Shown here in pieces: positions 10 through 38,128 of a stretch of 38,810 nucleotides of DNA. The stretch comes from a virus (lineage: Duplodnaviria > Caudoviricetes), in IMG/VR virus record IMGVR_UViG_3300032218_003242, positions 1-38,810 of that record, one strand, 5' to 3'. Position 1 is the first letter of the stretch, and each line of letters opens with the position of its first letter. The notes under the pieces are model-generated. The model ran no database searches, was not told the origin of the DNA, and saw only the letters and a list, made by a program, of their open reading frames with translations. Made by a program: the position numbers and the translations under genes.

Positions 10-495
10 ATGTTTGACTCCGCTAAGCGGGTAGAGCTTCTTATGAGTAAGATCGCTAAAGACCCAAAGACGCTAAAGATCGACGACTATCTAGCCATCG
101 CGACTATAGGTCTATCTAACTTTTTCTTCTCCGCACCTATGGACGAGTCAAGCGAGAACACCGCGGTAACAAGCGAGAAGCTTGCAATGCAAAGAGTCTA
201 TGAAGCTGACCAAGGACGCGACGTCGGAGTCGGTCTTGCCGTAGCATCTGACGATATTGACCAGGTATTTCAAGACTACCCAGAGCTGTACGAGCAACTT
301 GCAAGTGAAGATCCAGAGCAAGAAATCACAGCATCTGGTATGATTGAACTAGTTTTTGCTGCCCTTGGATCTGTAGATCCAAATGGACCTAACGCATGGC
401 TGTTAGATTACATGGATGGTCAGACGGCAGACGGCTTTGTAGGAGACATAGTTTTTGACGCTCAACCCGGCACCAATGAAACAGGGAAGAAGTAA
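10..495 (+). CDS. Acidic hypothetical protein, possibly C-terminal part of a longer head-associated ORF
   Basis: 161-aa ORF; frame is open from base 1 so it may start upstream of the window; stop abuts next ATG (497). Confidence 0.6.
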   Translation: MFDSAKRVELLMSKIAKDPKTLKIDDYLAIATIGLSNFFFSAPMDESSENTAVTSEKLAMQRVYEADQGRDVGVGLAVASDDIDQVFQDYPELYEQLASEDPEQEITASGMIELVFAALGSVDPNGPNAWLLDYMDGQTADGFVGDIVFDAQPGTNETGKK

Positions 496-496
496 A

Positions 497-21479: not shown

Positions 21480-24100
21480 TGTCTGCTTACATTAAGAAAA
21501 CAGGTGGAACCTGGAGTAACTCCATATCTGCCTTTTATATTAAAAATAGTACATGGAGAACTGTAAGCAACGGGTACATAAAGGTTGCAGGTACATGGAG
21601 ATCTTTTTTTACGAGCACTCGTACTCCTTCAATCGCGTCGACGGTAACAATTTCACGCAACAACGCGACGTACCCTTCAACACTTACAGGCACAAACTAC
21701 TACTGGACCGACTCTACGTCCTTAACGTACGTCTTTCAAAAATCTTCCGACAACTCTTCCTGGTCTAACATAGGCTCCGCAACATCTATTGCCAACCCTT
21801 CTTCAGGGTCTTCAAATACGGTCACCTATGCGCTTACACTTTCAGACTTTCCTGCGTTTACCTCCTATTATCGTTTTGTTGTAACCGCGGTGAACTCTAC
21901 ATACTCTACCTCCGCAACCTCGACAAGTACGTCCGTGTCCGTATCTCGCCCTGCACCAATTAACACCGTCGCGCCTACGATCTCTCCTTCATCAGGAACA
22001 GTAGGAGTTACGCAATACAGCGTGACAAGTAACGGCACCTGGGATCCTGACGACGCAGATGGCATATACGAGTATCTGTGGCAGTCATACGACACGCCAA
22101 GTTACGTCAGCGCTCCTGGCACCAACACTCTATCTACATACACTCCGCCTTCTAACTTTTTAAGCTTAGGCTACTTCAGCCCGATTCGTTGTCGTGTTAC
22201 CGCAACAAACGCCAGCGGCTCTACCGCCGCGTTCTCTAACACAGCTACCGTCTCCGCCGTTACGCCTTCAGCTAGTAACCTTGCTACTTCGGACACGACG
22301 ATAACACCAGGTGCTCCTTCTTCTATCACCGTGGCTAATACCGCTCCTTCTAATACAGGAACAGTTACGTGGGCTAATGGATCTAACGCAACAAGCTCTT
22401 GGGTTTCTTCTGTTACGCCTGGGGCGTCGTATACGGGCAGCGACGCCGGTACATTGATAACAAGTCAGACATTTACAGTAACCTCTACAGCTACCGCCGT
22501 AGCTACCGTCTACAATAAAAATAACAGCAAGAGAGTTACTCTCTCATGGGATCAGTCCAACGCGGCTAGCTATAGTGTGAACTACACTATAACGAACGCA
22601 GGTCTTGCGAACGGAACATATAACTCCACAGGTAACTCTACAGCGTCATCTGTTAGCGTTGTAGTTACACTTGGAAACGTATCTGGCACGGTTCGCGCTA
22701 ACTCTGTGACGGTGTACTCTAGCAGCGGGCAGTCAGGTGTTTCTTCAACGTTTACTCCAGGATCTGCTCCGCAAACTTCTCCTACAGATAAGACAAGTTC
22801 TAATACGGGAAGTGGCTCGGTTACATACACCCCTCCTGCGCCTGTAAACACCGTTGCACCAACAATTACTCCTACCTCTGGCACGGCTGGAACTACTACA
22901 TATAGTGTCAACAGCGTTGGCTCGTGGACTAATTCTCCTACCGGTTACACATACCAGTGGAAATATCAAGATCAACCTGGAGTGTTCCTAAGCATATCTG
23001 GTGCAACTAGCTCTTCATACTCTCCACCATCTAACTTCTTCTCTGGCCTCTTCTACGCAAGCCCTATCCGTTGCGATGTTACGGCTTCTAATGCAGGAGG
23101 GTCTTCTTCTCCTGCTGCGTCTAATACTGCAACAGTAGCAGCCCCGGTAGTGATACCTTCAGGCGGAACAGTTTCAATATCTACAAACACAGGAAACTAT
23201 ATTGTTGGAAGCATCATAACGTACTCAACTTCAGGGTGGGCTAACACACCGACAAGCTATAGTTTAAGACTATATAACGGAACTAACCCAGTATTAACTA
23301 GCGATCCTCTTAGAGCTTCAACGTCTAGCACATCTGGTACCTACACTATCAGTTCTTCTGATGTGCCAAACTACTTTAAAGCATACGCAACTGCAAGCAA
23401 CTCTGCAGGCACATCTACAGAAGTCGGCTCTACACAAGTAGGACCTGCAGTTGCAGCTGCACCTGTAAACACCGTCGCGCCTTCTGTAACACCTTCCTCT
23501 GGAACTGCAGGAGTTACTACGTACTCAACTACAAATGGCACATGGAGCAACTCTCCAACCTCATATACATATCAGTGGCAGTACCTAGATCAAGGAACTA
23601 CATATCTAAGCATATCTGGTGCAACTAGCTCTTCATACTCTCCACCTTCAAACTTTAGCGCTCTTGGATATGCTAGTCCTATTCGTTGTAGAGTCACAGC
23701 TACAAACTCTGGTGGATCTGCTTCAGCATTCTCTAACACGGCAACTGTCACATCACCAACCGTACCAGGCACAGTAACTTCGTTAACTGCGTCCTCTGCA
23801 CTTAGCGGTACAAACTTAAACTGGTCTGCGTCATGGTCTGCACCCTCAAGTGATGGCGGCTCGGCTATTACTGGGTATAAAGTTTATGTTGAAAGAGCAG
23901 CTTCGTCTTCAGGGCCGTGGACTGCCTCAACTACCCAGATTCCTGCAGGATCAGGCGCGTATACAGCAGCAGCTCCCTACTCTACAGCATCAACAAGCGT
24001 CAGTGGCCGTGTCACGGGAACGACAGCAACATGGATTCGAGTCTATGTTGCGGCGGTTAATGCTATAGGCACTGGCTCATATACGACTGCGGTAGGTTAA
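21479..24100 (+). CDS. Ser/Thr-rich Ig-like/FN3 repeat virion protein (putative receptor-binding or adhesion protein)
   Basis: Three AP.NTVAP...GTW....Y.YQW...IRC.VTA.N repeats, a fourth divergent, and a C-terminal FN3 (WSAPSSDGGSAITGYKV...VAAVNAIGTG). Confidence 0.72.
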   Translation: MSAYIKKTGGTWSNSISAFYIKNSTWRTVSNGYIKVAGTWRSFFTSTRTPSIASTVTISRNNATYPSTLTGTNYYWTDSTSLTYVFQKSSDNSSWSNIGSATSIANPSSGSSNTVTYALTLSDFPAFTSYYRFVVTAVNSTYSTSATSTSTSVSVSRPAPINTVAPTISPSSGTVGVTQYSVTSNGTWDPDDADGIYEYLWQSYDTPSYVSAPGTNTLSTYTPPSNFLSLGYFSPIRCRVTATNASGSTAAFSNTATVSAVTPSASNLATSDTTITPGAPSSITVANTAPSNTGTVTWANGSNATSSWVSSVTPGASYTGSDAGTLITSQTFTVTSTATAVATVYNKNNSKRVTLSWDQSNAASYSVNYTITNAGLANGTYNSTGNSTASSVSVVVTLGNVSGTVRANSVTVYSSSGQSGVSSTFTPGSAPQTSPTDKTSSNTGSGSVTYTPPAPVNTVAPTITPTSGTAGTTTYSVNSVGSWTNSPTGYTYQWKYQDQPGVFLSISGATSSSYSPPSNFFSGLFYASPIRCDVTASNAGGSSSPAASNTATVAAPVVIPSGGTVSISTNTGNYIVGSIITYSTSGWANTPTSYSLRLYNGTNPVLTSDPLRASTSSTSGTYTISSSDVPNYFKAYATASNSAGTSTEVGSTQVGPAVAAAPVNTVAPSVTPSSGTAGVTTYSTTNGTWSNSPTSYTYQWQYLDQGTTYLSISGATSSSYSPPSNFSALGYASPIRCRVTATNSGGSASAFSNTATVTSPTVPGTVTSLTASSALSGTNLNWSASWSAPSSDGGSAITGYKVYVERAASSSGPWTASTTQIPAGSGAYTAAAPYSTASTSVSGRVTGTTATWIRVYVAAVNAIGTGSYTTAVG
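22988..23646 (+). repeat. Exact 41-bp direct repeat (22988-23028 and 23606-23646) in Ig-like repeats
   Basis: CTAAGCATATCTGGTGCAACTAGCTCTTCATACTCTCCACC occurs at both positions. Confidence 0.9.
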
Positions 24101-25321: not shown

Positions 25322-26338
25322 ATGTTTATAGTTATTGAAGGCACGGATGCCTCAGGCAAATCTACTCTTGTGTCTGAGGTTCAAAAACAACTTAGCGAAA
25401 AGTTTCCTAAAAAAGAAATCGAGTTCTACCATAAGTCTAAGCCTGAAGAGATGACGCGTCGTTGGGTTTTACAGGACTATGTAACCTCTATTGAAAAGGC
25501 AGATTGGTCTCAACGTATTGCGGTTGCAGATCGCTGGCATTGGGGCGAGGTAACATACGCCGCTGTTAAACGTCCTGAGACAGGTACAGGCGACGGATAC
25601 GGTCTCCTCGGTAAAGCTGGTTGGCGTTGGACAGAGCTCTTTCTTCAATCACGTGGTGTTGCTCAATTTTGGCTCTATCAACCTCTTGATGTTATTACTC
25701 GTCGTCTTAATGCTCGCGGTGACGATTATGTACAGGTACACGAGTTAGAAGAGATCTTAAAATTCTATGAGCTTGCGGCTTCAGCGTCCGCAGGTCTTGC
25801 CGGACGCCTAACTCCTTCTCCAGATTCGCTTGACGCGATATCTCATCTTGCGTCTCACGTTATTAACCGCGCGGAGTCTTTTCAAGAAGATACACAGGAG
25901 CTAATAAAGTTTCCGGAGTACATCGGACAAAGATTTCCAAGGGTATTACTCGTAGGAGATACAAGAAACATCACTAAAAAATATGGCGAGGAAACTATCC
26001 TGCCTTTCATGCCTGTTGATGGAAATTCCGGCGAGTTTTTACTTACGGCTCTTGAGTCTGATAGGTGGAAGACCATGGGTATCGTGAATATAAACGACAT
26101 GTCATCAGAGCGTTTTGAAGATCTATGGTGTACGTTGCGTCGTCCACCTGTAGTTGCCTTAGGGCGTCTTGCTGAAAAAGGACTTATCTATGCAAATATA
26201 CCTAGCTATCTTTACTCTGTAACCTCCCACCCGCAGCACGTTAGACGATTTTTTCATGCACAAAAAGAAGAGTACGGCAAGGCAATAACACGACTTACAC
26301 AAGAAAAGAACCTGGGAGACAAATGGATACTGCGATAA
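25322..26338 (+). CDS. dNMP (thymidylate-like) kinase fused to C-terminal uracil-DNA-glycosylase-fold domain
   Basis: P-loop IEGTDASGKST and DRWHWGEVTY; C-terminal VLLVGD...PF....SGEFL..AL...N...P.VVALGR.A...HP matches UDG family 4/5 motif order. Confidence 0.75.
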   Translation: MFIVIEGTDASGKSTLVSEVQKQLSEKFPKKEIEFYHKSKPEEMTRRWVLQDYVTSIEKADWSQRIAVADRWHWGEVTYAAVKRPETGTGDGYGLLGKAGWRWTELFLQSRGVAQFWLYQPLDVITRRLNARGDDYVQVHELEEILKFYELAASASAGLAGRLTPSPDSLDAISHLASHVINRAESFQEDTQELIKFPEYIGQRFPRVLLVGDTRNITKKYGEETILPFMPVDGNSGEFLLTALESDRWKTMGIVNINDMSSERFEDLWCTLRRPPVVALGRLAEKGLIYANIPSYLYSVTSHPQHVRRFFHAQKEEYGKAITRLTQEKNLGDKWILR

Positions 26339-27174
26339 TCAACATACCTGACGGAGTTAACGGATACGTTGATCTTGTACAGCACGTACTCAAAAACGGT
26401 AAAGAGGTTGCTCCTCGTGGTATGAAGACACGCGAGATCGAGGATGCAATTATTCGTATAGATGACGTGTATAACACCTTACCTTTAGGTGTAGGACGTG
26501 GAACTGTTCCAGGTATCGGCGCGGTTGAGGCTTGCCAGCTTATCGCAGGTGCAAGCACGCCTAAACTTGTTATCGCCATCGGTCCACAGTTTGCTAACTA
26601 TACCGAGGATAACGGACTATTTCACGGAGCGTATGGAATTCGTACACAGTCGCAGTATGCTCCTATAGTTGAAAGACTTAAGGCAGACCCAGATACACGA
26701 CAGGCTGTCGTCACGATTTGGAATCCGGAGCTAGATCTTCTTTCAAATAAGCGAGATTACCCGTGCACTATCCTGCATCAATTTAGAATTCGCAACAACA
26801 AACTTAACATGAGCGTGTACATGCGCTCAAACGACGTATGGCTAGGAGCGGCGTATGACTTCTTCCAGTTTACCCGCGTTCAACTTGCAATAGCGTCTAT
26901 CCTGGGCATCGAGCCAGGAACGTATCACCATCACGTCGGATCTCTTCACATCTACGAGCAGCACTATGATTCAGCAGAAAATCTAAAGCACACAACCGAG
27001 CCTTATGAAAGTATCCCTGCAATTATCGGTGCCAACTGGCAACAGATCAAGAATCGTGCGATGGGTGCGTTGACAGCGGCAATACATAGAGACGAGCCTA
27101 TGCTTCTTTATAACCTTCATCCGTTTGAAGGTTGGTACGCTAACGCGATGATTAAGGCTATCAAAAGCCGATGA
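26323..27174 (+). CDS. Thymidylate synthase-fold enzyme, predicted dCMP hydroxymethylase/methylase
   Basis: DTRQA, catalytic PC (Cys 26764-26766), MRSND, GSLHIY; residue equivalent to E. coli ThyA N177 is Asp (RSNDVWLGAAYD, 26857-26859). Confidence 0.8.
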   Translation: MDTAIINIPDGVNGYVDLVQHVLKNGKEVAPRGMKTREIEDAIIRIDDVYNTLPLGVGRGTVPGIGAVEACQLIAGASTPKLVIAIGPQFANYTEDNGLFHGAYGIRTQSQYAPIVERLKADPDTRQAVVTIWNPELDLLSNKRDYPCTILHQFRIRNNKLNMSVYMRSNDVWLGAAYDFFQFTRVQLAIASILGIEPGTYHHHVGSLHIYEQHYDSAENLKHTTEPYESIPAIIGANWQQIKNRAMGALTAAIHRDEPMLLYNLHPFEGWYANAMIKAIKSR

Positions 27175-28214
27175 AAATTAACGGAATAGTCATAGCAAGA
27201 AACGAGTGGCCTTTGCTGGGTCTCTCTATCTCACATGCGCTTTTTTACCATGTTGATAAAGTTTTTGTTATTGACCACTCCAGCACCGACGACACAAAAA
27301 ATGGTCTTGCCGAGCTGCAAAAGGTTTGGCCGGATCAGATAGAGGTATTTAGATATGAGGATAACCTATTTGACCAGGAAGCCTTAACTAATATTCTTCT
27401 ACATATCAGTAATCAAGAAAATCCTGACTGGAACTTTATCTTCGACGCGGACGAGTTTTTAGTTAGCCCTACCGACAAAGATATAGAGGATCTTTTATCT
27501 AATCTAGGTGAAAAATGGAATGCCATAGCTATGCAGCTAGAAAACTACATAGTACCTGCAGGATTTATTGACACTAGACTAGATGATTACCAGCTTGTAG
27601 ATCACTACGTGACGTCTGTAAATCACGTAGGAGATCGTGACGAGTTCCACGAGGAGGTTAAAAGAAACGAAAAACTTCTTCACGAGTTTAGGGTTCCCTC
27701 AAAGATTCTGGTAAAAAACAACTCCGGTGACTTTGTTGATGCAGGACAGCACCAGCTTAAATACGGGGATGGTAAGTTCTGGCACCTTTGGGATACTACG
27801 GTTGCCGCATCAAATAAGGAAGATTGGTTAATATGCCATCTTCCATACACAAGCCTAAAAAGATTTAAGGCTCGCAAGGATGTACACGAACGCATCAACA
27901 ATAACTTTGCCAACAAGGTTTTTGCAAAGACGATAACACCTGATGAAGATATAGCGCAGATGTGGGATAGACTTCAGATGCATCCTGGAGACACTAATCC
28001 AATCTTAGTTAGAGATTCTTCGCTTTCTAAAAGTTTTGCTCCTTTAACTATAAAGTTAGCACCTTACTGGGGAAAAATACTGCAGCCAGAACACCATAAT
28101 GTAGTGTACAGAATATCGTCCGAGGCAATAGAGTTTGCAGTTGGTGTTGCAAACAAGTATATCCGCATATGTGATGAGCTGTGGGCAAACCAGAAAGGAG
28201 ACCGAATTGAGTAA
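27171..28214 (+). CDS. GT-A (family 2-like) glycosyltransferase
   Basis: IARNE, IDHSSTDDT, DxD motif FDADEFL, GQH, HLPY.S...F motifs. Confidence 0.8.
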   Translation: MKINGIVIARNEWPLLGLSISHALFYHVDKVFVIDHSSTDDTKNGLAELQKVWPDQIEVFRYEDNLFDQEALTNILLHISNQENPDWNFIFDADEFLVSPTDKDIEDLLSNLGEKWNAIAMQLENYIVPAGFIDTRLDDYQLVDHYVTSVNHVGDRDEFHEEVKRNEKLLHEFRVPSKILVKNNSGDFVDAGQHQLKYGDGKFWHLWDTTVAASNKEDWLICHLPYTSLKRFKARKDVHERINNNFANKVFAKTITPDEDIAQMWDRLQMHPGDTNPILVRDSSLSKSFAPLTIKLAPYWGKILQPEHHNVVYRISSEAIEFAVGVANKYIRICDELWANQKGDRIE

Positions 28215-28386
28215 CGAGCTAGAGGGTTTTGGACAAAGTAGTCCACTTCGCGAGGCAACCGTGCAACTGCACGAGATGTACGTTGAACTTAGATCTGCGG
28301 GCTTTAGTAAGAAAGAAGCGCTACATCTAGTATCAAAGATTCTTTCAAGTGCTGTTATCGGTGGGATTGAGGATATTGATAGATGA
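28207..28386 (+). CDS. Small hypothetical protein
   Basis: TTG 28207 with SD AAGGAG; LHEMYVELRSAGFSKKEALHLV is a common small phage protein pattern. Confidence 0.65.
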   Translation: MSNELEGFGQSSPLREATVQLHEMYVELRSAGFSKKEALHLVSKILSSAVIGGIEDIDR

Positions 28387-28862
28387 ATAGTCGCCCTTCC
28401 TGGGACGAGGTCTGGATGCAGGTTGCAGATGCAATCGCGCAACGATCTCGCTGTAGCCGTGCTCAGATCGGAGCCGTCGTTGTGTCTAAGGACCAGCGCA
28501 TTAGCTCTACTGGGTATAACGGTCCTGCAGCTTTGTTCCCAGTAGAAGGAGACTGCATTGACTGGTGCCCACGTGCCCAAGGAGTAACTGCGCTTGATAA
28601 CACATATGATTCATGTCCATCAATCCACGCAGAGTCAAACGCACTACTATACGTTGACCGTTCTCGCGTAGAAGGTGGTACCATATACATAACAGATGCA
28701 GCGTGTTATCAGTGCGCAAAGTTAATTTCTAACTCTGGAATTACCCGCGTTGTTATGCGAATTGGAACGCGTGCGGCTCATCGTTTGCCAGATGCGACTG
28801 TAGATTATTTTAAGAAATGCAACATTGAGGTAGTAGTAACAGAGGACGTAAATGACAGTTGA
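28383..28862 (+). CDS. dCMP deaminase
   Basis: RPSWDE..M..A..IA.RS.C, TGYNG, HAESNAL, CYQCAKLI zinc motifs. Confidence 0.92.
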   Translation: MNSRPSWDEVWMQVADAIAQRSRCSRAQIGAVVVSKDQRISSTGYNGPAALFPVEGDCIDWCPRAQGVTALDNTYDSCPSIHAESNALLYVDRSRVEGGTIYITDAACYQCAKLISNSGITRVVMRIGTRAAHRLPDATVDYFKKCNIEVVVTEDVNDS

Positions 28863-30675
28863 AGGTCTAGGTGACGTACAACTTCACCTCGTAGACAGCG
28901 TTGAAAAGGCAGGGGAGTTTTTAACCTGGCTTGGCGAGCGTCGTCCTCATGATGCAATTGCGATTGATACTGAAACTGGAGAGTACCCAGGACGAGATCG
29001 TAAGGACGCCTTATCTCCTTGGCACGGGCGTCTTCGTCTTGTGCAGGTTGGCGATGGGCAACAGGCATGGGCAATGCCGTGGGACGAGTGGGCAGGTGCG
29101 TTCTATCAAGCTATGGATAAGTTTGATGGGCAAGTTGTTTGTCACAACATAGCATTTGAGGCAAAATGGTTTGACATCCAGTCACGTTGGAAGCTGCCGT
29201 GGCACCGCGCGCACGACACTATGATTATGGCGCACATCATTGATCCACTTGGCGTGGGCGCGTTAAAACGTCTTGCAGCTCTATATGTTGACGGGCGTGC
29301 GGTTGCTCTTCAAGATACGCTAGATACAGAGTTAGCAACTAACGGCTGGACATGGGGCACCGTTCCGACTAATTTTCAGCCTTACTGGGCGTACGGTGCG
29401 TTAGACTGCATCTTAACTATGCGCCTGTGGGAAAAATTTTATGAAAAGTGTGGTCCTGGCGGTCCATACAACAGGGCATATGAACTAGAAATGGCAACAC
29501 GTCGCATCGTTACCCGTATGGAAATCAACGGCGCGCGCATTGACCTTGACTACTCGAGGAAGAAGTTTGACGAGCTAACAGAGTACGCGGGCTCGGTTAA
29601 GACATGGGCTAAGGAAAAGTACAACGGCGTCTCTATCGGCAGCAACATTCAACTAGTGCGTTTACTAGAATCACTTGGCGCAGAGATCAACGAGTTCACA
29701 CCTTCGGGACAAAAATCAGCTTCAAAGGACCAACTTAAGCTTCTTACTATCGAAGGCAACGATGAGGTAAAGTCATTAGCTGAAATCGTGTTAAAGCAAC
29801 GCAAGGCAGATAAGCTTGCTAACACGTACTTTGCAAACTTTATCAATGACAACGTCAATGGGTTTGTTCATCCTTCTGTAAAAACGCTTGGCGCTCGTAC
29901 CTCGCGCATGTCAATCCAAAATCCTGCGCTGCAGACATTGCCTAAGGGTGATGACGTTGTGCGTCGTGCATTTATTCCTAAGGACGATGACCACGTCATT
30001 ATTACCTCTGACCTTGACCAGGTTGAGTTTAGAATGGTCGCGTCTCTTACTGGAGATCCAAACCTTATCGGTATGTTTCATCAGGCAGACCTCACAGGAT
30101 CAGATCCGTTCACCGAGATTGGAAAAGAAGTATACAGCGATCCAAACTTCCAGCGTTCTGATAAACGACGCGGTCTTATTAAAGGCATGATTTATGGTCG
30201 TCTCTACGGCGCGGGTGTTGCAAAGCAGGCGCTTACCGCGGGTGTACCCGAGAACATAATGAAGACTGTAGTTAATCAATTTGATGTACGCTTCCCAGGC
30301 ATGACTGGTTTCCAGCAAAAGATTGAAGACGTTGGAATGCGTCGTCTTAAGGCAGAAGGCCAAGGGTATGTTTACACCTGGACAGGGCGTAGACTTCCTT
30401 GTGACGAAGATCGAGTTTATACCTTGCTTAATTATTTAGCCCAGGGAGGCGCGGCAGAGATCTTTAAGGCAAATCTTGTAAAACTAGATCAGGCAGATCT
30501 AACCGAACTTCTCATCGTTCCTGTGCACGATGAAATTGTTCTTAACGCACCGCGTAACGACGTTGAAGAAATTAAGCGTATCGTTAAGGAGTGTATGACA
30601 ACTACCGAAGGCTGGGCAGTTCCGCTTACAGCAGGCATTGATGGTCCTATGGAAAACTGGGGAGAAAAATACTAG
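28852..30675 (+). CDS. polA: DNA polymerase family A with 3'-5' exonuclease
   Basis: ExoI DTETG, ExoII HNIAFE, ExoIII YGALD; motif A DLDQVEFR, motif B KGMIYGRLYG, motif C VHDEIV. Confidence 0.95.
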   Translation: MTVEGLGDVQLHLVDSVEKAGEFLTWLGERRPHDAIAIDTETGEYPGRDRKDALSPWHGRLRLVQVGDGQQAWAMPWDEWAGAFYQAMDKFDGQVVCHNIAFEAKWFDIQSRWKLPWHRAHDTMIMAHIIDPLGVGALKRLAALYVDGRAVALQDTLDTELATNGWTWGTVPTNFQPYWAYGALDCILTMRLWEKFYEKCGPGGPYNRAYELEMATRRIVTRMEINGARIDLDYSRKKFDELTEYAGSVKTWAKEKYNGVSIGSNIQLVRLLESLGAEINEFTPSGQKSASKDQLKLLTIEGNDEVKSLAEIVLKQRKADKLANTYFANFINDNVNGFVHPSVKTLGARTSRMSIQNPALQTLPKGDDVVRRAFIPKDDDHVIITSDLDQVEFRMVASLTGDPNLIGMFHQADLTGSDPFTEIGKEVYSDPNFQRSDKRRGLIKGMIYGRLYGAGVAKQALTAGVPENIMKTVVNQFDVRFPGMTGFQQKIEDVGMRRLKAEGQGYVYTWTGRRLPCDEDRVYTLLNYLAQGGAAEIFKANLVKLDQADLTELLIVPVHDEIVLNAPRNDVEEIKRIVKECMTTTEGWAVPLTAGIDGPMENWGEKY

Positions 30676-31127
30676 TGAAGATGATCTTATCGGTAGACCC
30701 AGGAAAGGCAACAGGCATGACCCTGTTCTCGTTTGAAAGAGGACAGGAGCCAGTCTTAATCTGGGCAGGTGAGTATCAACAGGAAGAGTACGCCAAGCCT
30801 ATCCGTGACACTCTCGTTGAGTATCCTGATGTGACCGTTGTCTGTGAGCGCTTTATCATTAACGCTCAGACTGCTAAAAAATCACAGGCTCCCTACAGCC
30901 TTGAGCAGATTGGAATTTTACGCCAATGTCTTATGGACGCAGGAAGAAAGGCAGATGACGTTATCTTCCAGTCACCTTCCGACGCCAAGGCGATGTTTGA
31001 TAATCCTAAACTTAAGAAGCTGGAGTACTGGCATAAGGGCGGTGAAGGACACGCACTTGATGCGATACGACATGCCCTATTACAGTGTGTAAAGCTTGGA
31101 TGGATCCCTAGAAGGCTCCTACAATAA
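30675..31127 (+). CDS. RuvC-like (RNase H fold) Holliday junction resolvase
   Basis: ILSVDPGKATG, VVCERF, HALDAIRH acidic catalytic pattern. Confidence 0.7.
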   Translation: MKMILSVDPGKATGMTLFSFERGQEPVLIWAGEYQQEEYAKPIRDTLVEYPDVTVVCERFIINAQTAKKSQAPYSLEQIGILRQCLMDAGRKADDVIFQSPSDAKAMFDNPKLKKLEYWHKGGEGHALDAIRHALLQCVKLGWIPRRLLQ

Positions 31128-31174
31128 ATAAAGTAGATACTAAGCAGAAATAATAAACAACTTCTGCAAAATCC

Positions 31175-31183
31175 TGTTAGTAT
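31175..31183 (+). promoter_or_regulatory. Extended -10 promoter candidate (TGTTAGTAT) before helicase
   Basis: TGn + TAGTAT in AT-rich intergenic; GCAGAA/TTCTGC inverted repeat (31144-31167) just upstream. Confidence 0.5.
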
Positions 31184-31214
31184 AGCGAAATAATGACGAA
31201 AGGAACGACAAACA

Positions 31215-33017
31215 GTGCCAGTTGACGTAGAGCTCGACGAGTCGGGCAAGCACGTAATTATCAATACTGAGTGGCGTCTTAAGGAACTTTGCAAAAGTAT
31301 TCCTGGAGCAAAGTGGGATGCAAGAACTCAGGTATGGAACGTGCCTACAAGTTGGGCAACATGTTTGGCATTACGTAGCACCTTCAAAACTGACCTTCAA
31401 ATTGGCCCTAGATTGACCGCCTGGGCTTCCAACGAGGTAGCCACACGTATTACCCCGGCAAACACGTTACGTGACCTAGAAACCCTGGAAGAGGGCAACG
31501 AGGACCTGTTCCCGCATCAGCGTGCAGGTGTCAAATTCCTATCGGTAGCCCGTAGAGCATTACTAGCAGATGAACCTGGTCTAGGCAAGACAGCGCAGGC
31601 AATTCGAGCATTAAAACAATTACAGGATAACGGCGAGGATGTTTTTCCCGCGCTTATCGTTTGCCCTAACACCCTCAAGAAGAACTGGAAGCGCGAGTTC
31701 GATATGTGGTGGCCTGGAGTTGACGTAGAGGTTATTAAGGGATCAGCGACTCAACGCCGTAAGGTCTTTGAGGAAGAGGCTGACGTATACGTTATTAACT
31801 GGGAATCCTTGCGCTCTCATTCTAGACTTTCTTCCTACGGCTCTATTGCCCTTGCGCGGTGTCAAGAATGCGGCGGGCATGACGAGAAGGTTACTATAAA
31901 TCGCTGCGAGGTTCACAAGCGAGAACTTAACATGATTGATTTTAAGTCTGTAGTTGCGGACGAAATCCATCGAAGTAAAGAGCCGAAGTCTAAGCAATCT
32001 CGTGCCCTATGGGCTGCAACAGGCGATGCGGATATTCGCTTTGCATTGACTGGAACACCTATCGCAAACAACGTTTTAGATCTATGGTCAATCCTTCACT
32101 GGCTATCGCCTGAAGAGTGGCCAAGCAAGACACGTTGGGTTGACCGCATGGTTAACGTAATGTTGAATGCCTTCGGTGGCATGATGGTTTTAGGTGTAAA
32201 GCCTCACATGGAACAAGAATTCTATGCGACGGTAAATCCTCGCATGCGTCGCATGTTAAAGGCAAAGGTACTGCCTTGGCTTCCTGAAATGATGTTTGAA
32301 CGTCGCGACATCGAGATGTCTACTAAGCAAAAGAAAGCTTATGACCAGATGCGTGACACGATGATTGCAGAGTTAGAGAACGGAGATGCGATTACCGCAC
32401 CTTCAGCTCTTACGCAGACAATTCGTCTACTACAGTTTGCAAGTTCTTATGCCGAGATGAGCGTGAACGAAGAAACAGGCGAGACGCGTGCAGTACTTAC
32501 TGAGCCTTCCTGTAAGGTTGACTCGCTTATGGACGACATTGAAAACGGCGACTTTGGAGATGACTCCGTTGCGGTGTGCGCGGTGTCACGTCAGTTGATT
32601 GATTTACTTAGTGCAGAAATGACTAAGGCTAAGATTCCACATGGTCTCATCACTGGTGCCCAGGACGAGGACGAACGTCAACAGGCGGTTGACGACTTCC
32701 AGTCCGGCAAGATCAAGTGGATACTTTTTACAGCGCAGGCTGGCGGTGTTGGCATTACACTTACCGCGGCGCGACGTTTAGTAATGTTGCAGCGTCCATG
32801 GTCACTTGTAGATCACAAGCAGGCACTTGACCGTGTTCACCGTATCGGATCTGAAATTCACGACTCAATTATCGTCACAGACTATGTTACAGATGGTTCT
32901 ATCGAGGAAAGAGTTATCCAAGTCTTATCAACTAAGGCTGATAACTTTGAACAAATCGTAAAAGATAAAGACAAGCTTCTCTCACTACTCAAAGACGATA
33001 AGGCAGGAAAGCTATGA
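31215..33017 (+). CDS. SNF2-family (SF2) helicase with N-terminal HARP-like domain
   Basis: LADEPGLGKT, DEIH, LTGTP, AGGVGITLT, QALDRVHRIG. Confidence 0.92.
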   Translation: MPVDVELDESGKHVIINTEWRLKELCKSIPGAKWDARTQVWNVPTSWATCLALRSTFKTDLQIGPRLTAWASNEVATRITPANTLRDLETLEEGNEDLFPHQRAGVKFLSVARRALLADEPGLGKTAQAIRALKQLQDNGEDVFPALIVCPNTLKKNWKREFDMWWPGVDVEVIKGSATQRRKVFEEEADVYVINWESLRSHSRLSSYGSIALARCQECGGHDEKVTINRCEVHKRELNMIDFKSVVADEIHRSKEPKSKQSRALWAATGDADIRFALTGTPIANNVLDLWSILHWLSPEEWPSKTRWVDRMVNVMLNAFGGMMVLGVKPHMEQEFYATVNPRMRRMLKAKVLPWLPEMMFERRDIEMSTKQKKAYDQMRDTMIAELENGDAITAPSALTQTIRLLQFASSYAEMSVNEETGETRAVLTEPSCKVDSLMDDIENGDFGDDSVAVCAVSRQLIDLLSAEMTKAKIPHGLITGAQDEDERQQAVDDFQSGKIKWILFTAQAGGVGITLTAARRLVMLQRPWSLVDHKQALDRVHRIGSEIHDSIIVTDYVTDGSIEERVIQVLSTKADNFEQIVKDKDKLLSLLKDDKAGKL

Positions 33018-33943
33018 CCCAGCCGATAAGAATCTCTAACTCCGAGATCCAAACCTTCAAAGATTGTCGTAGAAGATGGTGGTTATCATATTACCGTCGA
33101 TTGCAACCTAGAACTCAACAGATGACAGGTGCACTTGCACTTGGTTCTCGTGTTCACGAGGCACTTGATATGTACTACGGCAAGGGCATCCCACTTCTTG
33201 ACGCACATGCAGAACTTGTCGTGAAAGATAAGTTAATTCTTGAGTCTACATTCCGTGATACATACGATTTAGACTCCGAGGCCGAGCTTGGTCGCATCAT
33301 GCTTGAAGGCTACCTACAGTGGGTTGATGAAAACGGAATTGACGCAGAGTTAGAGATGATTTCTACAGAAGAAATTATCGAGATGCCTTTACTTAACGGC
33401 GAGGTTATCCTGCAAGGTAAGATTGATATGCGTGTTCGTCGTAAGGCTGACGGAGTGCGTATGTTTAGAGACTTTAAGACTGTCGGCGGCTCGTTTACAG
33501 ACTTCTCCGCGATGGCACACATGAACGAGCAGATTCTTACGTATATGATGTTAGAAACTGCGCAGAACAAAGAAGGTGAACGCTCTGAAGGCGGAATCTT
33601 TACTATGTTAAAGAAGGTTAAGCGCTCTGCAAACGCAAAGCCACCCTTCTACGAACAAATTGAAGTACGTCATAACGTTTTTGCCTTGCGCTCGTTCTGG
33701 CAGCGTATCCACGGTGTTCTAACGAACATGATGGGTGCACGCAAGGCACTTGATGAAGGTGGAGATCACAGATTTATCGTGTACCCAAGTCCTTCACGCG
33801 ATTGCAAGTGGAAATGCTCATTCTTCTCTATATGTCCGATGTTTGATGATGGGTCTGCGGCAGAGGCTGCACTTGAAGACGCGTTCCAACCGTCAGATCC
33901 CTATTCCTATTACGGTGTAGAAGAGAAGAAGGGTAACGCTTAA
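33014..33943 (+). CDS. Cas4/AddB-like PD-(D/E)xK exonuclease (4-Cys Fe-S type)
   Basis: SNSEIQTFKDC, GSRVHEALD, GKID..DFKT, C-terminal CKWKCSFFSIC. Confidence 0.85.
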   Translation: MTQPIRISNSEIQTFKDCRRRWWLSYYRRLQPRTQQMTGALALGSRVHEALDMYYGKGIPLLDAHAELVVKDKLILESTFRDTYDLDSEAELGRIMLEGYLQWVDENGIDAELEMISTEEIIEMPLLNGEVILQGKIDMRVRRKADGVRMFRDFKTVGGSFTDFSAMAHMNEQILTYMMLETAQNKEGERSEGGIFTMLKKVKRSANAKPPFYEQIEVRHNVFALRSFWQRIHGVLTNMMGARKALDEGGDHRFIVYPSPSRDCKWKCSFFSICPMFDDGSAAEAALEDAFQPSDPYSYYGVEEKKGNA

Positions 33944-33979
33944 TAATGTTAAACAAACACAAAGAGATGAAAGGAAACA

Positions 33980-34762
33980 GTGATGTCTGACGTACAACGT
34001 TCGTTGACTATCATGGTTTACGGCGAATCAAAGGTTGGTAAATCAACCTTCGCGGTAACCGCACCATATCCACGTCTCATGCTTGACGTTGAGGGTGGGC
34101 ATCGATTCCTACCTATCACCGTTAAGTACTGGGACCCTATTCGAGAAGAACCTCCAGTTGCCGATGGCACCTGGGACACCGTAGTCGTTAACGTTCGCGA
34201 CTATGATGTTGTTCTTAAAACATTCCAGTGGTTACAGACTGGAAAGCATCAGTTCAAGTCACTTATCATTGATTCCATCTCTGAACTTCAAGTGAAGTGC
34301 ATGGATTCAATCGCAGGTACTGAACAAATGAAGATGCAACAATGGGGCGAGTTGCTTCGTCACATGGGTGCGCTACTGCGTGACCTACGTGACCTTACAA
34401 TGCACCCTACACAGCCGTTAGAAGCTGTTGTATTGACTGCTATGGCACGACCTGGAGCAGACGGACGTTCACGTCCTTACCTGCAAGGTCAGCTTGCAAT
34501 TCAAGCGCCATACTTCTATGACATCCTTGGCGCAATTACAGTAGAAACGTTTCCTAATCCGGACCCACTGCAATCACCGTTTAAGGCACGTCGTATGTAC
34601 GTAGAACGCACAGACGAATACGAAGCAGGCGAGCGAGTACAAGGCAGACTTGGAAAGATCGTTGAACAAGAAAACCTTGGTATCGAACGCATGCTTGACA
34701 TGATTTTCGGTCCAACTACACCAGCAGTAACACCACCACCAACAACTAAGTCAGGAGAATAA
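33980..34762 (+). CDS. AAA_24 / Sak4-like ATPase (recombinase)
   Basis: YGESKVGKST Walker A, LDVEGG, IIDSISELQ Walker B; between exonuclease and SSB. Confidence 0.82.
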   Translation: MMSDVQRSLTIMVYGESKVGKSTFAVTAPYPRLMLDVEGGHRFLPITVKYWDPIREEPPVADGTWDTVVVNVRDYDVVLKTFQWLQTGKHQFKSLIIDSISELQVKCMDSIAGTEQMKMQQWGELLRHMGALLRDLRDLTMHPTQPLEAVVLTAMARPGADGRSRPYLQGQLAIQAPYFYDILGAITVETFPNPDPLQSPFKARRMYVERTDEYEAGERVQGRLGKIVEQENLGIERMLDMIFGPTTPAVTPPPTTKSGE

Positions 34763-34767
34763 ACCAG

Positions 34768-35319
34768 ATGAGTTCACTCAATTGGGGCGATCTTGTAAAA
34801 GACGCCGGAGATGTAGGCAGTTTCGAACCACTACCAGACGGTGACTACGATCTCGTATGTCAAGAAATCACTGCAAAGGTTTCGCAGTCAGGTAAGACTA
34901 TGTTTGCGCTTAAGGCGCAGGTACAAGGTGGCGCTCATAACAAGCGCATTGTTTGGGATAACTTAGTTGTTACTCCAGAATCACCTGCTGCTCTTGGTAT
35001 GTTTTTCCGCAAGATGGCAGCTCTCGGTTTAGGCCGCGAGTTCTTTGCAACAAGTCCTTCTAACGCTGCAATCGAGCAAGCTGCTAAGGGACGCGCATTT
35101 CGTGCACAGGTTGGCTCTCGCACATGGCAGGGTCAAAAGAAGAACGAAATTAAGATGTACTACGTAGCTACAGCACCTGCAGGTACTCCTGCAGCACCTG
35201 CCGCTGCAGCACCTGCACCAGCGCCTGCACCTGCACCAGCTCCAGCGCCCGCCGCTGCTCCAGTAGCAGAAGCATCAGCGCCAGCAGTTGCAGCAGCTCC
35301 ACCTTCTGCTCCGTTCTAA
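34768..35319 (+). CDS. Single-stranded DNA-binding protein (DUF669-like)
   Basis: FEPLPDGDY, SQSGK.M, KNEIK, Pro/Ala linker ending APF. Confidence 0.8.
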   Translation: MSSLNWGDLVKDAGDVGSFEPLPDGDYDLVCQEITAKVSQSGKTMFALKAQVQGGAHNKRIVWDNLVVTPESPAALGMFFRKMAALGLGREFFATSPSNAAIEQAAKGRAFRAQVGSRTWQGQKKNEIKMYYVATAPAGTPAAPAAAAPAPAPAPAPAPAPAAAPVAEASAPAVAAAPPSAPF

Positions 35320-35326
35320 ATAGCAG

Positions 35327-35394
35327 TCTAAGTAAGTCTGGTTTATCACCTATTCCTGGTACAGTGAATAGGTGATACTCCAAATCTACTTAGA
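35327..35394 (+). promoter_or_regulatory. Long hairpin between SSB and first GT-B gene
   Basis: TATCACCTATTC(35344-55)/GAATAGGTGATA(35366-77) plus outer TCTAAGTA(35327-34)/TACTTAGA(35387-94). Confidence 0.7.
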
Positions 35395-35406
35395 AAGGTA
35401 GTGGGC

Positions 35407-36618
35407 ATGAAGGTTCTAATTACAGGATTTACTGCACTCCAAATTAACACGGAGAAGCGTACGATCCAAAAGATTGACGTGCCTGCTTCTATCGCAAAAG
35501 CATTGCGTGAAGCTGGCCATGATGTTGATTGGCGCAAGGTTACACCAGGCGAGGATCTTTCATCTTATGATGTTGCGTGGGTAAACCTTGCACCGTTAAA
35601 CTCACTTAATGGACGTCAAGGTGCGATGGGTGCACTCTATACTTTGTCATCTGGATTACCTTGCGTAGGATTCTTTGATGATTGGCAATTTAATACCGTG
35701 TTCAACGGTGCTCGTGCTTTAATTCGTAAACCTGAGATGTTATATAAGCATCTGCTTGTAGGAACTGAGCATCGCGGAGAAGAAGGCGCAACTTACTTTA
35801 GTCGTGCAGATATTGAAGCGGCAGTTGAACGTATCAAGGAAACAAACCCTGCGGCGGCAAAAAAGTGTTATATCGAACGCTATTATATGATGGACTCAGA
35901 CGAAAACGTACAGCCTTACGAAAAACGTTTAGTCGAGGCATCACGAGATCTCATCGCAGATCGTTGGCTAGCAGGTATGGTTCCAGTTTGTCCTATGTAT
36001 TCTTTCGGTGACAGAGCTATCGTGCGTAAGCGCATGCCTGACGCGGTAGGACCTATCGAGGCGTTAGACCCAACGTCAACTGTTATTCCAACCCTACAAC
36101 CTGTTACCGCACTTCCTCCTACGGAGAAAAAGCGTGCATGGGTTCTTGGAGCTCTTATGCCACATGACGGTTGGCTTGAAAGAAAGAATCCAGACTGGCA
36201 AGTTGAGATCGTAGGAAGTCGTAAGCTTATTAAGAAACTTGGCGGACAAAGATTTGCTACAGAGCAGGACGTACTTGAGTTCTATAACAAGCACTGGGGA
36301 ATTCTTTCTCCACCGTATCCACACGCTGGATCCGGCTGGTGGCGTAGTCGTTTCCTATATGCAGCCCACGTAGGATCTATCCTTGTTACCGATAAGGGCG
36401 AAGGTGATCCACTTGGTGATGCGTATAAGCTAAAGATCTCTGACGTTGAAAAGATGTCGGACACAGAGCTGCACGCAACTGCCATGGCACAACGCGCGGC
36501 ATTAACTCCATATATCCCAGAGTACACCGCGTTTGTTGAACACTGTGACCGTATCATTAAGCGTGCGGTTGCCGAGGACAAAGGCCGTGCATTGAAGGCA
36601 GACGGTACACTTGTATGA
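35407..36618 (+). CDS. GT-B glycosyltransferase, T4 beta-glucosyltransferase-like
   Basis: ATG 35407 after GAAAGG. MKVLITG..LREAGHDV..DLSSYDV..N...FFDDWQ; C-terminal GILSPPY..GWWRSRF..A..GSIL. Confidence 0.6.
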   Translation: MKVLITGFTALQINTEKRTIQKIDVPASIAKALREAGHDVDWRKVTPGEDLSSYDVAWVNLAPLNSLNGRQGAMGALYTLSSGLPCVGFFDDWQFNTVFNGARALIRKPEMLYKHLLVGTEHRGEEGATYFSRADIEAAVERIKETNPAAAKKCYIERYYMMDSDENVQPYEKRLVEASRDLIADRWLAGMVPVCPMYSFGDRAIVRKRMPDAVGPIEALDPTSTVIPTLQPVTALPPTEKKRAWVLGALMPHDGWLERKNPDWQVEIVGSRKLIKKLGGQRFATEQDVLEFYNKHWGILSPPYPHAGSGWWRSRFLYAAHVGSILVTDKGEGDPLGDAYKLKISDVEKMSDTELHATAMAQRAALTPYIPEYTAFVEHCDRIIKRAVAEDKGRALKADGTLV

Positions 36619-37643
36619 GTAAAATTCTTATCACAGGTATGAGCGCTTCTCATGCTTCAGAGAAGGCTAACATGCGCTCGTTATCTTTTGCTGGAGTGAT
36701 GAAGTTAGTTCTTGAGCAGCAAGGGCACGAGGTTATCCAGGAAAATCCTGAGGTCTCCTGGAACCTAAATGATCTTGAACAATATGACTCCGTACTTGTT
36801 GGAATTAGTCCTATAACAAGCTTAAGTGCAAATCACGTCTACGGAGCGTTAAGTGTTATTGACGTGCTGCTTGACTCGCCTAAGTTACGTTTATTTATCG
36901 ACGCACCTGAACCTGGAAAGATTACCGCAAGTCTTCGCGCGATGGTTAAGACACCTGACAACCTTACCAAGCCTTTTTATTCCTACCGTAGAGGTTTTAG
37001 TCACGCGTCACAACCAAACATGCTTAATAACCTTATAGAGGTCATAGAGGATCTGCTTAATAAGCCTTGGCCTATAACGTTGTACCCGTCGCTGTCTTGG
37101 ACAGACGAGACAGAGCACGTTGCTAACTTCCTACCTGAAGGCGCACGTAACTCACTTAAGGCTATTAACTTAGATGCGTACTTAATCTCAACACAGGAGA
37201 TGATAGACATCGAGCGCCGTGATAAATGGGTAGTAGAAAATTACTCTACCAAGTGGGTTAAGTCTACCGCGTCTACGTTATCAACTCCTACAGTTCCTAT
37301 GAAGTGGAATAAGTCCTGGAGTGACTCGCAGGTGTATGCACAGATAGCCTCAGGTATAGGCGCGCTTATCCCTCCGTATCCTTCTAGTACATGGTGGAGT
37401 TATAGATATATCCAGTGCATGAACGCGGCAACGCCTATCGCAACAAACTGGAAGGAAAGTCAACTCTTGGGTTCATCATGGACTCATCTTGCGTCAAGTA
37501 TCGAGAGTATGTCAAAGGAAGAACGCTTAGCGCTTGCTACGCAGCAACGCAACGCATATCTAGAAAATATACCTACACGTAGGGAAGCAGCAATTAACTT
37601 ATCACAGGCACTAGGTCTATTCACGAGAAAAGAGCAAAACTAA
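36615..37643 (+). CDS. Second GT-B glycosyltransferase-like paralogue
   Basis: KILITG..LEQQGHEV..DLEQYDSV..LFID; GALIPPY..WWSYRY; clearly paralogous to upstream gene; ATGA overlap. Confidence 0.58.
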   Translation: MSKILITGMSASHASEKANMRSLSFAGVMKLVLEQQGHEVIQENPEVSWNLNDLEQYDSVLVGISPITSLSANHVYGALSVIDVLLDSPKLRLFIDAPEPGKITASLRAMVKTPDNLTKPFYSYRRGFSHASQPNMLNNLIEVIEDLLNKPWPITLYPSLSWTDETEHVANFLPEGARNSLKAINLDAYLISTQEMIDIERRDKWVVENYSTKWVKSTASTLSTPTVPMKWNKSWSDSQVYAQIASGIGALIPPYPSSTWWSYRYIQCMNAATPIATNWKESQLLGSSWTHLASSIESMSKEERLALATQQRNAYLENIPTRREAAINLSQALGLFTRKEQN

Positions 37644-38128
37644 TGACCATCTTGTTTAATAACTGGTTAAAGCGTACACGTGAACTACAAAAGGACGTAT
37701 ACTTCATTAACTACGAAGAAATGCAAGGCGATAAGCCTCAGAACATCCGTAAGTTTGTAGAGTACCTACGCTGGAATATGCTAGCGGTAGATGATGAACT
37801 TGCAGAGATGCGCCAGGCAATCTCATGGAAGCCTTGGCAACACGACGCTCCTTATGCAGATAGAGAAGAAGTAATTAAGGAAGCGGTTGACGTTTTACAC
37901 TTTGTCGCCAACATTATCGTTGCGGCGGGTGGAACAGACGAGATGCTTGATAAGTTTTATCTTGAAAAGATGGAACGTAACAAGCAACGTCAGCTAGACG
38001 GCTACAAGGTTAAGGACATCGGAGTAAAGTGTGCTCTATGCCAGCGCGCAATTGACGACGTAGGTCGCGGCGCAAGCCCAGAAATGTGCGCAAAATGTTT
38101 ACCAAGGGAGGTAGATTACAGTGCCTGA
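37643..38128 (+). CDS. All-alpha (dimeric) dUTPase/dCTPase with C-terminal CxxC-CxxC
   Basis: DELAEM...SWKPW...EEVIKEAVDVLHF...Y.EK...N..RQ..GY; CALC...CAKC tail. Confidence 0.82.
   Translation: MTILFNNWLKRTRELQKDVYFINYEEMQGDKPQNIRKFVEYLRWNMLAVDDELAEMRQAISWKPWQHDAPYADREEVIKEAVDVLHFVANIIVAAGGTDEMLDKFYLEKMERNKQRQLDGYKVKDIGVKCALCQRAIDDVGRGASPEMCAKCLPREVDYSA

Follow-up and report, generated by a model that had tools for sequence, protein, structure and literature searches.

A predicted pathway for glycosylated hydroxymethylcytosine DNA in a siphovirus with a likely actinobacterial host

Does the phage behind IMG/VR record IMGVR_UViG_3300032218_003242 coat its cytosine with sugar, as T4 does? The record is a 38.8-kb linear stretch with a completeness of about 30%, and we call all 38,810 nucleotides of it the window; the genes that raise the question lie between 25322 and 38128. 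The original prediction was that they form a complete functional parallel to the T4 system for glycosylated 5-hydroxymethylcytosine (hmC). We think it probable that this gene set replaces most cytosine with hmC before replication and that two paralogous enzymes, similar to the T4 beta-glucosyltransferase (BGT), then glycosylate it. An active-site signature, a predicted fold, the joint gain and loss of the genes and a pattern of restriction sites all point this way, and from these we infer the chemistry. All of the open reading frames (ORFs) named in the original prediction are present, on the + strand, at the positions given below.

The central gene is a thymidylate synthase (TS) homologue at 26323..27174 (+), which matches PF00303 (E 2e-27) and which we predict to be a dCMP hydroxymethylase. 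Its best PDB match is the CMP hydroxymethylase 5b6d (E 6e-24). Asp179 aligns with an Asp of 5b6d and with the Asn of true TS, and D145, C148, D171 and D179 all align with T4 gp42 (prob 98.9), so the Asp that had been reported at the pyrimidine-specificity position is there. In the accessible part of PMC13326640, ThyA-numbered changes are diagnostic: N177D for dCMP, L143D/E for a product other than methyl and D169N for a 5-hydroxy-dCMP synthase. We located these positions in our enzyme by counting from the catalytic Cys and from the RS motif, and not from an alignment with E. coli ThyA, and found Asp at 143 (D145) and 177 (D179) and no D169N (D171). With Asp at 143 and 177 and Asp169 kept, the predicted product is 5hm-dCMP. 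The catalytic C148, D179 and the acidic D145 together place the protein with the dCMP hydroxymethylases of T4 gp42/MilA type. In an alignment of 24 sequences (the window, 19 of 38 non-redundant relatives and four GenBank records), D179 is invariant and D171 is kept in 23, with Asn only in Rgz1, a phage with an arabinose cluster. We considered two other assignments and rejected both. A 5-hydroxy-dCMP synthase of RB69 gp48 type does not fit the kept D171, with the diagnostic Asn seen in the Rgz1 control, and a canonical ThyA does not fit Asp at both positions instead of Asn177 and Leu143; the protein also falls short of the NCBIfam cut-offs for TS or comes near none of them. Each of five TS-positive relatives has one copy of this gene, TS was not found in any of five TS-less relatives (three with a completeness of 90% or more), and ThyX was not found in the five relatives tested for it.

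Three more genes make up the rest of the nucleotide part of the core. A dNMP kinase of TMK/YorR type lies at 25322..26338 (+; phrog_761; YorR E 4e-9) and is present in 78 of the 80 relative loci that we anchored on TS. The original prediction had likened it to T4 gp1, and a dNMP kinase is indeed present, but the equivalence is only functional. The kinase profile matches YorR and TMKs, with no gp1 chain among its 24 PDB matches to E 10, and by these profiles the kinase is an analogue of gp1 and not a homologue. A fused C-terminal domain resembling uracil-DNA glycosylase (UDG; approximately aa 195-338) had also been missed. Its ESM Atlas matches are UDG clusters (0.93; clusters with 19-36% PF03167), a weak PF03167 match turns up in 10 of the 30 homologues (E 0.01 at best), and the region is present in 30 of 30 aligned homologues; our confidence that residues 195-338 are UDG-family-like is weak to moderate. 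The predicted dCMP deaminase (28383..28862, +; PF00383 E 6e-19; phrog_174) is also in 78 of the 80 TS-anchored loci. At the far end is an all-alpha NTP pyrophosphatase (NTP-PPase; 37643..38128, +; PF08761 E 9e-11), a gp56-like predicted dCTPase/dUTPase that has the acidic motifs of its family in common with T4 gp56 when the two are aligned. Both of these genes and a family A DNA polymerase (PolA; 28852..30675, +; PF00476) had been correctly placed in the replication region. PolA is common to the TS-less sister phages and is not specific to the module.

Two GT-B glycosyltransferases stand before the NTP-PPase gene, GT1 (35401..36618, +) and its paralogue GT2 (36615..37643, +; hhalign 99.4 to GT1). 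Neither matched Pfam (hmmscan, to E 0.1) or NCBIfam, profile searches of PDB sequences with both gave nothing significant, and neither belongs to PF09198 (T4-Gluco-transf), where the likeness of GT1 comes from an ESM Atlas look-alike only. An AlphaFold model of GT1 from 143 sequences reached a pLDDT of 97.4 (a single-sequence attempt reached 35.9). T4 BGT was the top match of this model in Foldseek (E 8e-7) and in VIA (Z 18.5 over 292 aligned positions with an rmsd of 3.7; the second match had Z 17.1), with a small lead over other GT-B enzymes in both searches. On this model we confidently assign GT1 a GT-B fold resembling T4 BGT, and the homology of GT2 to GT1 predicts the same for GT2, which agrees with the two GT-B genes of the original prediction. 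By local motif match only, with no residue-level superposition, the counterparts of BGT D100 and R269 would be D94 (142 of 143 sequences) and R317 (143 of 143) in GT1 and D96 (48 of 48) and R264 in GT2, and BGT E272 is apparently replaced. The GT1 family is broad, with 691 representatives at E 0.001. Other members and look-alikes of these families turned up outside the module. An unrelated 56-kb siphovirus (L246, MW202657.1, 12001-24932) has a GT1 homologue with an NTP-PPase and an Asp-type pyrimidine hydroxymethylase, and TS-less phages carry a lone GT2-like gene without hmC genes, in which the putative donor-binding Arg is often lost (L034:16468-17490 and 36 other loci; here and below L numbers are relative loci and G numbers relative genomes).

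The genes next to GT1 homologues say something about the sugar. These homologues directly adjoin a UDP-galactopyranose mutase (UGM) gene in DSL-LC01, Erwinia phage FBB1 and Aeromonas phage 25, and an arabinose-5-phosphate isomerase gene in Rgz1. FBB1 and Aeromonas phage 25 have a gp42-type TS, and T4 alpha- and beta-gt were not found in these two phages. This suggests that the GT1 family may transfer a furanose to hmC. Because GT1 homologues sit beside UGM, the sugar of GT1 may not be glucose, and a furanose such as galactofuranose is a real candidate. No UGM was found in five of five TS-positive relatives tested, which are the closest complete relatives of the window, so the sugar donor would be host-derived. 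In 11 other TS-positive loci, some on the same contig, the GT1 slot is filled by a different 415-aa protein, followed, wherever the flank extends far enough, by genes for a kinase, a HAD protein and a nucleotidyltransferase and then by GT2, NTP-PPase and a methyltransferase (MTase). L143 has GT2 without GT1, and GT2 is present in all TS-positive loci visible to that point. With the GT1 slot filled variously and GT2 kept, GT2 is the constant member, and the GT1 slot changes together with sugar-donor genes. The cassette with the 415-aa protein (L316:10001-14728; also L322, L137, L148, L151, L157) follows the SSB gene; its 415-aa protein is related to the Gordonia gp126 glycosyltransferase, its kinase is APH-like, and its content suggests a phage-made NDP-sugar. 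The pairing of a mutase with a GT1-family gene in T4-like FBB1 and Aeromonas phage 25 (L244:7937-10062 and L245:7364-9545) makes these cultured phages candidates for galactofuranosyl-hmC.

The original prediction had proposed co-occurrence across related phages as a check, and this check came out in its favor. In a set of 80 loci anchored on PolA (22 TS-positive, 51 TS-less and seven cut upstream), GT1, GT2 and NTP-PPase are all present in each of the 10 TS-positive loci visible to both ends, and none of the 41 TS-less loci visible to both ends has GT1 or NTP-PPase. We also compared four TS-positive genomes with four TS-less ones. Only seven ORFs of G006 are in all four TS-positive genomes and in none of the TS-less ones, and five of them are the kinase, TS, deaminase, GT1 and NTP-PPase. 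The other two are a 215-aa protein (G006:30380-31027) and a thioredoxin-like protein (G006:48304-48621).

Put together, the predicted activities would form a pathway. The NTP-PPase would hydrolyze dCTP to dCMP, the TS homologue would hydroxymethylate dCMP, the TMK-type kinase and host kinases would bring the product to hm-dCTP, and PolA would incorporate it. GT2 and GT1 would then add one or two sugars from nucleotide-sugars. Destruction of dCTP would starve the host route to dUMP through dCTP deaminase; with that route starved and no phage TS to make dTMP, the dCMP deaminase fits the pathway and would keep dUMP flowing to the host thymidylate synthase. The UDG-like domain could perhaps, in keeping with UDG chemistry, remove uracil or hydroxymethyluracil that arises in this scheme. 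A third glycosyltransferase, GT-A, would be an optional extra. The glycosylated hmC would protect sites that contain cytosine against the restriction enzymes of the host.

If cytosine is shielded, phages with and without the module might treat restriction sites differently, and they do. Among the TS-less genomes, GATC was observed 0 times in G002, G005 and G004 against 338, 375 and 333 expected, and AGCT 0 times in G002 and G004 against 500 and 589. The window keeps such sites (observed/expected GATC 159/184, AGCT 216/177, CCGG 59/69) and lacks the A/T-only ATTAAT (0/10), which is also depleted in the TS-positive genomes G006 (0/26), G007 (1/24) and G008 (0/19). The four TS-positive genomes and the window have a single C-containing 4-base palindrome below 0.3 of expectation between them (GATC in G009); the four TS-less genomes have 2, 5, 2 and 4, several with a count of zero. 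The observed/expected ratio of CCGG is 0.55-1.13 in the TS-positive genomes and 0.00-0.47 in the TS-less ones. When 136 loci were reduced at 95% PolA identity to 55 representatives, a C-containing palindrome was depleted in 5 of 37 TS-positive and 12 of 18 TS-less loci, a contrast whose P values are inflated by there being only about three changes of TS status on the PolA tree. Pooled A/T-only palindromes showed no difference between the two groups of representatives, and five-base interrupted palindromes gave no clear contrast. As a control we took 40 kb each of T4 and of RB49, whose DNA is unmodified; C-containing 6-mer palindromes were depleted in 0 of 13 cases in T4 and 6 of 25 in RB49, a contrast in the same direction as that among our phages. 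The accessible part of PMC7653180 reports that T4 DNA withstands 94% of type II enzymes, that digestion by A/T-only cutters is complete or partial, and that AseI (ATTAAT) digests hmC DNA completely and glucosyl-hmC DNA in part. The pattern points to modified C, which it fits better than modified T, and it rests on about three evolutionary changes. A few TS-positive loci purge A/T-only 4-mers (all four are at zero in L138, and ATAT or TTAA in L002, L114, L143 and L187).

Several observations weigh against the pathway as we have drawn it. The likeness of GT1 to BGT is structural only (the profile match has prob 11). A GT2-like gene (30-43% identity) is kept in 37 of 41 TS-less loci, so the GT2 family need not act on hmC. 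RB49 carries gp56 by annotation, so the dCTP specificity of the NTP-PPase remains a prediction. L198 has GT1, GT2 and NTP-PPase without kinase, TS and deaminase before PolA; its PolA region is about 71% identical to that of L011 and the remainder 92%, and the locus has the look of a recombinant or a chimera. Only about three changes of TS status occur on the PolA tree, which was built by a quick method with L198 left out and a Gordonia row too long for rooting, so these changes may be gains or losses. The restriction-site contrast has its own exceptions. Avoidance of C-containing sites is found in 10 of 11 rows of one TS-less group and only 2 of 6 of the other, TS-less G001 keeps GATC, TS-positive G009 depletes GATC (63/376) as T4 does (43/130), G008 has no CCATGG or CGTACG, and G007 has CCGG at 121/221. 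Host or GC differences could contribute. Finally, relatives carry a gene with a C5-MTase fold alongside the module, which would be odd if every C5 were occupied.

This last gene lies just past the window. In L163, where GT1 is 98% and NTP-PPase 100% identical to ours, it starts about 1.5 kb after the start of NTP-PPase, or about 300 bases past the window end. We observed it at L013:20266-21531, in L163 from 13726, and at L002:28375-29619, L003:11038-12336 and L402:15896-17278. Fifteen phage records match it at a cover of at least 80%, and all are Gordonia carriers, DSL-LC01 or Kurnik. It retains PPC with the catalytic Cys, the Glu of motif VI and RxR. Motif I is changed, an Arg apparently stands in place of the motif II acid, and in motif X a Lys replaces Asn (GKAV against GNAV of M.HaeIII). 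In M.MpeI the motif X Asn is N374. CmoX and the engineered M.MpeI N374K likewise combine the C5-MTase fold with a basic motif X residue, in the accessible part of PMC12783734. Unlike the CmoX system, the phage gene is also altered in motifs I and II, and CmoA (TIGR00740) was not found in five of five carriers. No CmoX chain was identified by name among the 41 PDB matches of the phage protein.

This gene also speaks for the best of the rival explanations. In that explanation hmC is made but takes the place of just some of the cytosine or receives hardly any sugar, the remaining cytosine is a substrate of the rewired C5-MTase, and the glycosyltransferases act partly on other targets. The MTase-fold gene, with its catalytic Cys intact, is in three of four TS-positive and none of four TS-less genomes, some C-containing sites are avoided in G007, G008 and G009, and TS-less phages have the GT2-like gene. 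However, NTP-PPase and deaminase accompany TS, as expected for full replacement; G009 has no MTase and yet keeps CCGG, AGCT and TCGA; and the GT2 Arg264 that seemingly matches BGT R269 occurs in 33 of the 34 TS-positive copies but only 5 of 14 TS-less ones. We consider this explanation improbable.

Another explanation is that the genes supply nucleotides in the usual way (from dCMP to dUMP to dTMP, or by way of 5-methyl-dCMP) and that the glycosyltransferases act on the virion or host surface. It is true that no second TS or ThyX was found in the complete relatives tested, and other surface-type glycosyltransferases lie further downstream in these phages. Ordinary supply does not explain Asp at both 177 and 143, the BGT-like fold, the joint loss of genes 8 kb apart or the restriction-site contrast, and we find it very unlikely. 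We think even less of a modified thymine, where hm-dCMP would be deaminated to hm-dUMP, glycosyl-hydroxymethyluracil would replace T, and C would be left for the MTase. The deaminase is adjacent in 78 of 80 TS loci, SPO1-type dUMP hydroxymethylases are among the matches of the TS homologue (33-35%), and the MTase would be explained; on the other hand, Asp179 predicts dCMP, and A/T-only ATTAAT is purged while T-free CCGG is tolerated. A 5-hydroxycytosine of RB69/DLP3/RL38J1 type with furanose sugars is hardly credible, even with a GT1 homologue within the Rgz1 arabinose cluster, MilA as the top structural match of the hydroxylases too and a resemblance of the cassette B kinase, HAD and nucleotidyltransferase genes to RB69, since Asp171, which the window has and which 23 of the 24 sequences in the alignment keep, means that D169N, the diagnostic change in the accessible part of PMC13326640, is absent.

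We return to replacement by glycosylated hmC and to its optional member. The GT-A gene (27171..28214, +) belongs to the GT2 family (PF13704, E 5e-14), so the third glycosyltransferase of the original prediction is present in the replication region. The proposal that all three work as one system building a mono-, di- or trisaccharide found no support, as GT-A is in only 7 of 80 TS-anchored loci and its kin are bacterial GT2-family proteins. It is missing from relatives whose TS is 91% identical, and a 31-row TS tree shows at least three changes in its status. A search of 50,697 phage records gave no match to it, and cultured phages lack it. The gene is intact and under purifying selection (dN/dS, the ratio of nonsynonymous to synonymous substitution rates, is 0.05-0.14 in six pairs), with a GC of 0.41 against 0.45-0.48 for eight other genes. 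Its closest kin beyond its own group are 27-41% identical, and four of six neighborhoods inspected, out of 78, had glycan-related genes (other glycosyltransferases, polysaccharide pyruvyl transferase, RmlD, LCP) among the 25 of 62 ORFs scanned. The R...DDD...EDY/F motif of JGT-like phage DNA GT-A enzymes, as given in the accessible part of the Pyle preprint (bioRxiv 10.1101/2023.12.21.572611), was not seen in our GT-A alignment, which shows NEW and DADEF. The start of GT-A overlaps the TS stop codon, a position that leaves room for a DNA role, and on balance we lean mildly against such a role. Some TS-less phages carry a 277-aa GT-A-like gene (weak Anp1 match) in the slot of kinase, TS and deaminase (L037:9169-10002).

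A bolder version of the preferred reading is that this lineage makes an undescribed cytosine. It would be hmC with a furanose (galactofuranose) or mixed glycan from an uncatalogued BGT-like family, with swappable sugar cassettes and GT-A as an optional elongator, plus a C5-MTase-fold enzyme whose cofactor pocket is rebuilt for something other than S-adenosylmethionine and which does new chemistry on hmC in DNA through its catalytic Cys. We regard this combination as rather unlikely.

The remaining genes fit the PolA and SNF2 siphovirus background that had been described. A small ORF (28135..28386, +) usually lies between TS and deaminase, and is also in the TS-less locus L062. RuvC-like, SNF2 helicase, PD-(D/E)XK exonuclease, Sak4 and SSB-like genes (30675..35319, +) form a conserved block that divides the module in two. 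Among the 32 window ORFs scanned, tape measure, major tail and Dit matches are of siphovirus type, and there is no sheath match. A 1576-aa ORF (455-5185) matches portal and head-maturation protease PHROGs in its C-terminal third, which leaves its N-terminal 1000 aa unassigned. Two long Ser/Thr/Gly-rich tail-fibre-like proteins are at 19413-24100, and the second (873 aa) has repeated units. A promoter scan was at chance (16 against 19.4 expected). Relatives of the window reach 115-155 kb. Among annotated records DSL-LC01 is closest (TS 62%); it was assembled from a metagenome, and its predicted hosts are Actinomycetia. Cultured Gordonia phages come next (TS 37-41%), and the near relative L172 encodes WhiB. 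From these relatives, an actinobacterial host and a lake origin are likely.

Other carriers have related gene sets. DSL-LC01, Gordonia phage BlueNGold and Micrococcus phage Kurnik, which we inspected, have the gene order of the window and an Asp-type TS, and the Gordonia phages Forza, Sixama, GodonK, Phendrix and GMA2 have tblastn matches to GT1, GT2 and the MTase. In these carriers the glycosyltransferase cassettes differ from that of the window, and none has its GT-A. In this order, too, Kurnik (L402), cultured and 56 kb, has kinase, gp42-type TS, deaminase, PolA, different glycosyltransferases, NTP-PPase (MazG) and the rewired MTase. The UGM of DSL-LC01 is treated as a cell-wall auxiliary gene in the accessible part of PMC10611076. 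Our literature search found nothing on hmC and glycosyltransferases of Gordonia phages, and on hmC DNA modification of actinobacteriophages it found only 7-deazaguanine work; for two of five Gordonia phage names it found no paper, and on galactofuranose together with hmC in phage DNA it gave two entries. It left most subscription papers uncovered, so absence from print is unproven. If our reading is right, T4-style cytosine replacement extends to actinobacterial PolA siphoviruses, with partly non-orthologous parts and a glycosyltransferase family for which Pfam has no model. Sister phages that carry or lack the module offer a natural contrast of two escapes from restriction, coating cytosine or deleting sites, and cultured Gordonia and Micrococcus carriers of the module exist. 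A new DNA sugar or a rewired C5-MTase would provide useful enzymes for 5hmC labelling.

How does the module compare with known systems? The arabinosyl-5-hydroxycytosine phages RB69 and DLP3 and the galactosyl-glucosyl cytosine phage RL38J1 (accessible part of PMC13326640) also have a TMK-like kinase beside a TS homologue and several GT-B enzymes, and furanose-donor genes (UGM, isomerase, kinase/HAD/nucleotidyltransferase) are found in relatives of the window. Their TS has D169N, whereas the window keeps Asp and has no sugar-donor gene. In the 5mYOX-linked GT-A/GT-B systems (accessible part of bioRxiv 10.1101/2023.12.21.572611), tandem glycosyltransferases put mono- to trisaccharides on hmC and the GT-B is often TS-linked, as here; however, hmC is post-replicative there, and their GT-A motif differs from the DAD of the window. 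T4 itself (gp56, gp42, gp1, cd, alpha/beta-gt) is like the window in its Asp-type TS, gp56-like NTP-PPase, dCMP deaminase and BGT-fold transferases. Unlike T4, the window belongs to a PolA siphovirus with a TMK-type kinase and UDG-like fusion in place of gp1, no phage td, glycosyltransferases outside PF09198, an optional GT-A and, in relatives, a rewired C5-MTase. The complete T4 parallel of the original prediction therefore stands for an hmC pathway with BGT-like glycosyltransferases, but not for GT-A, which is optional, or for a kinase homologous to gp1. Judged by sequence, the gene set probably works like the T4 pathway, with GT1, GT2 and the kinase outside the T4 sequence families by the tests we ran.

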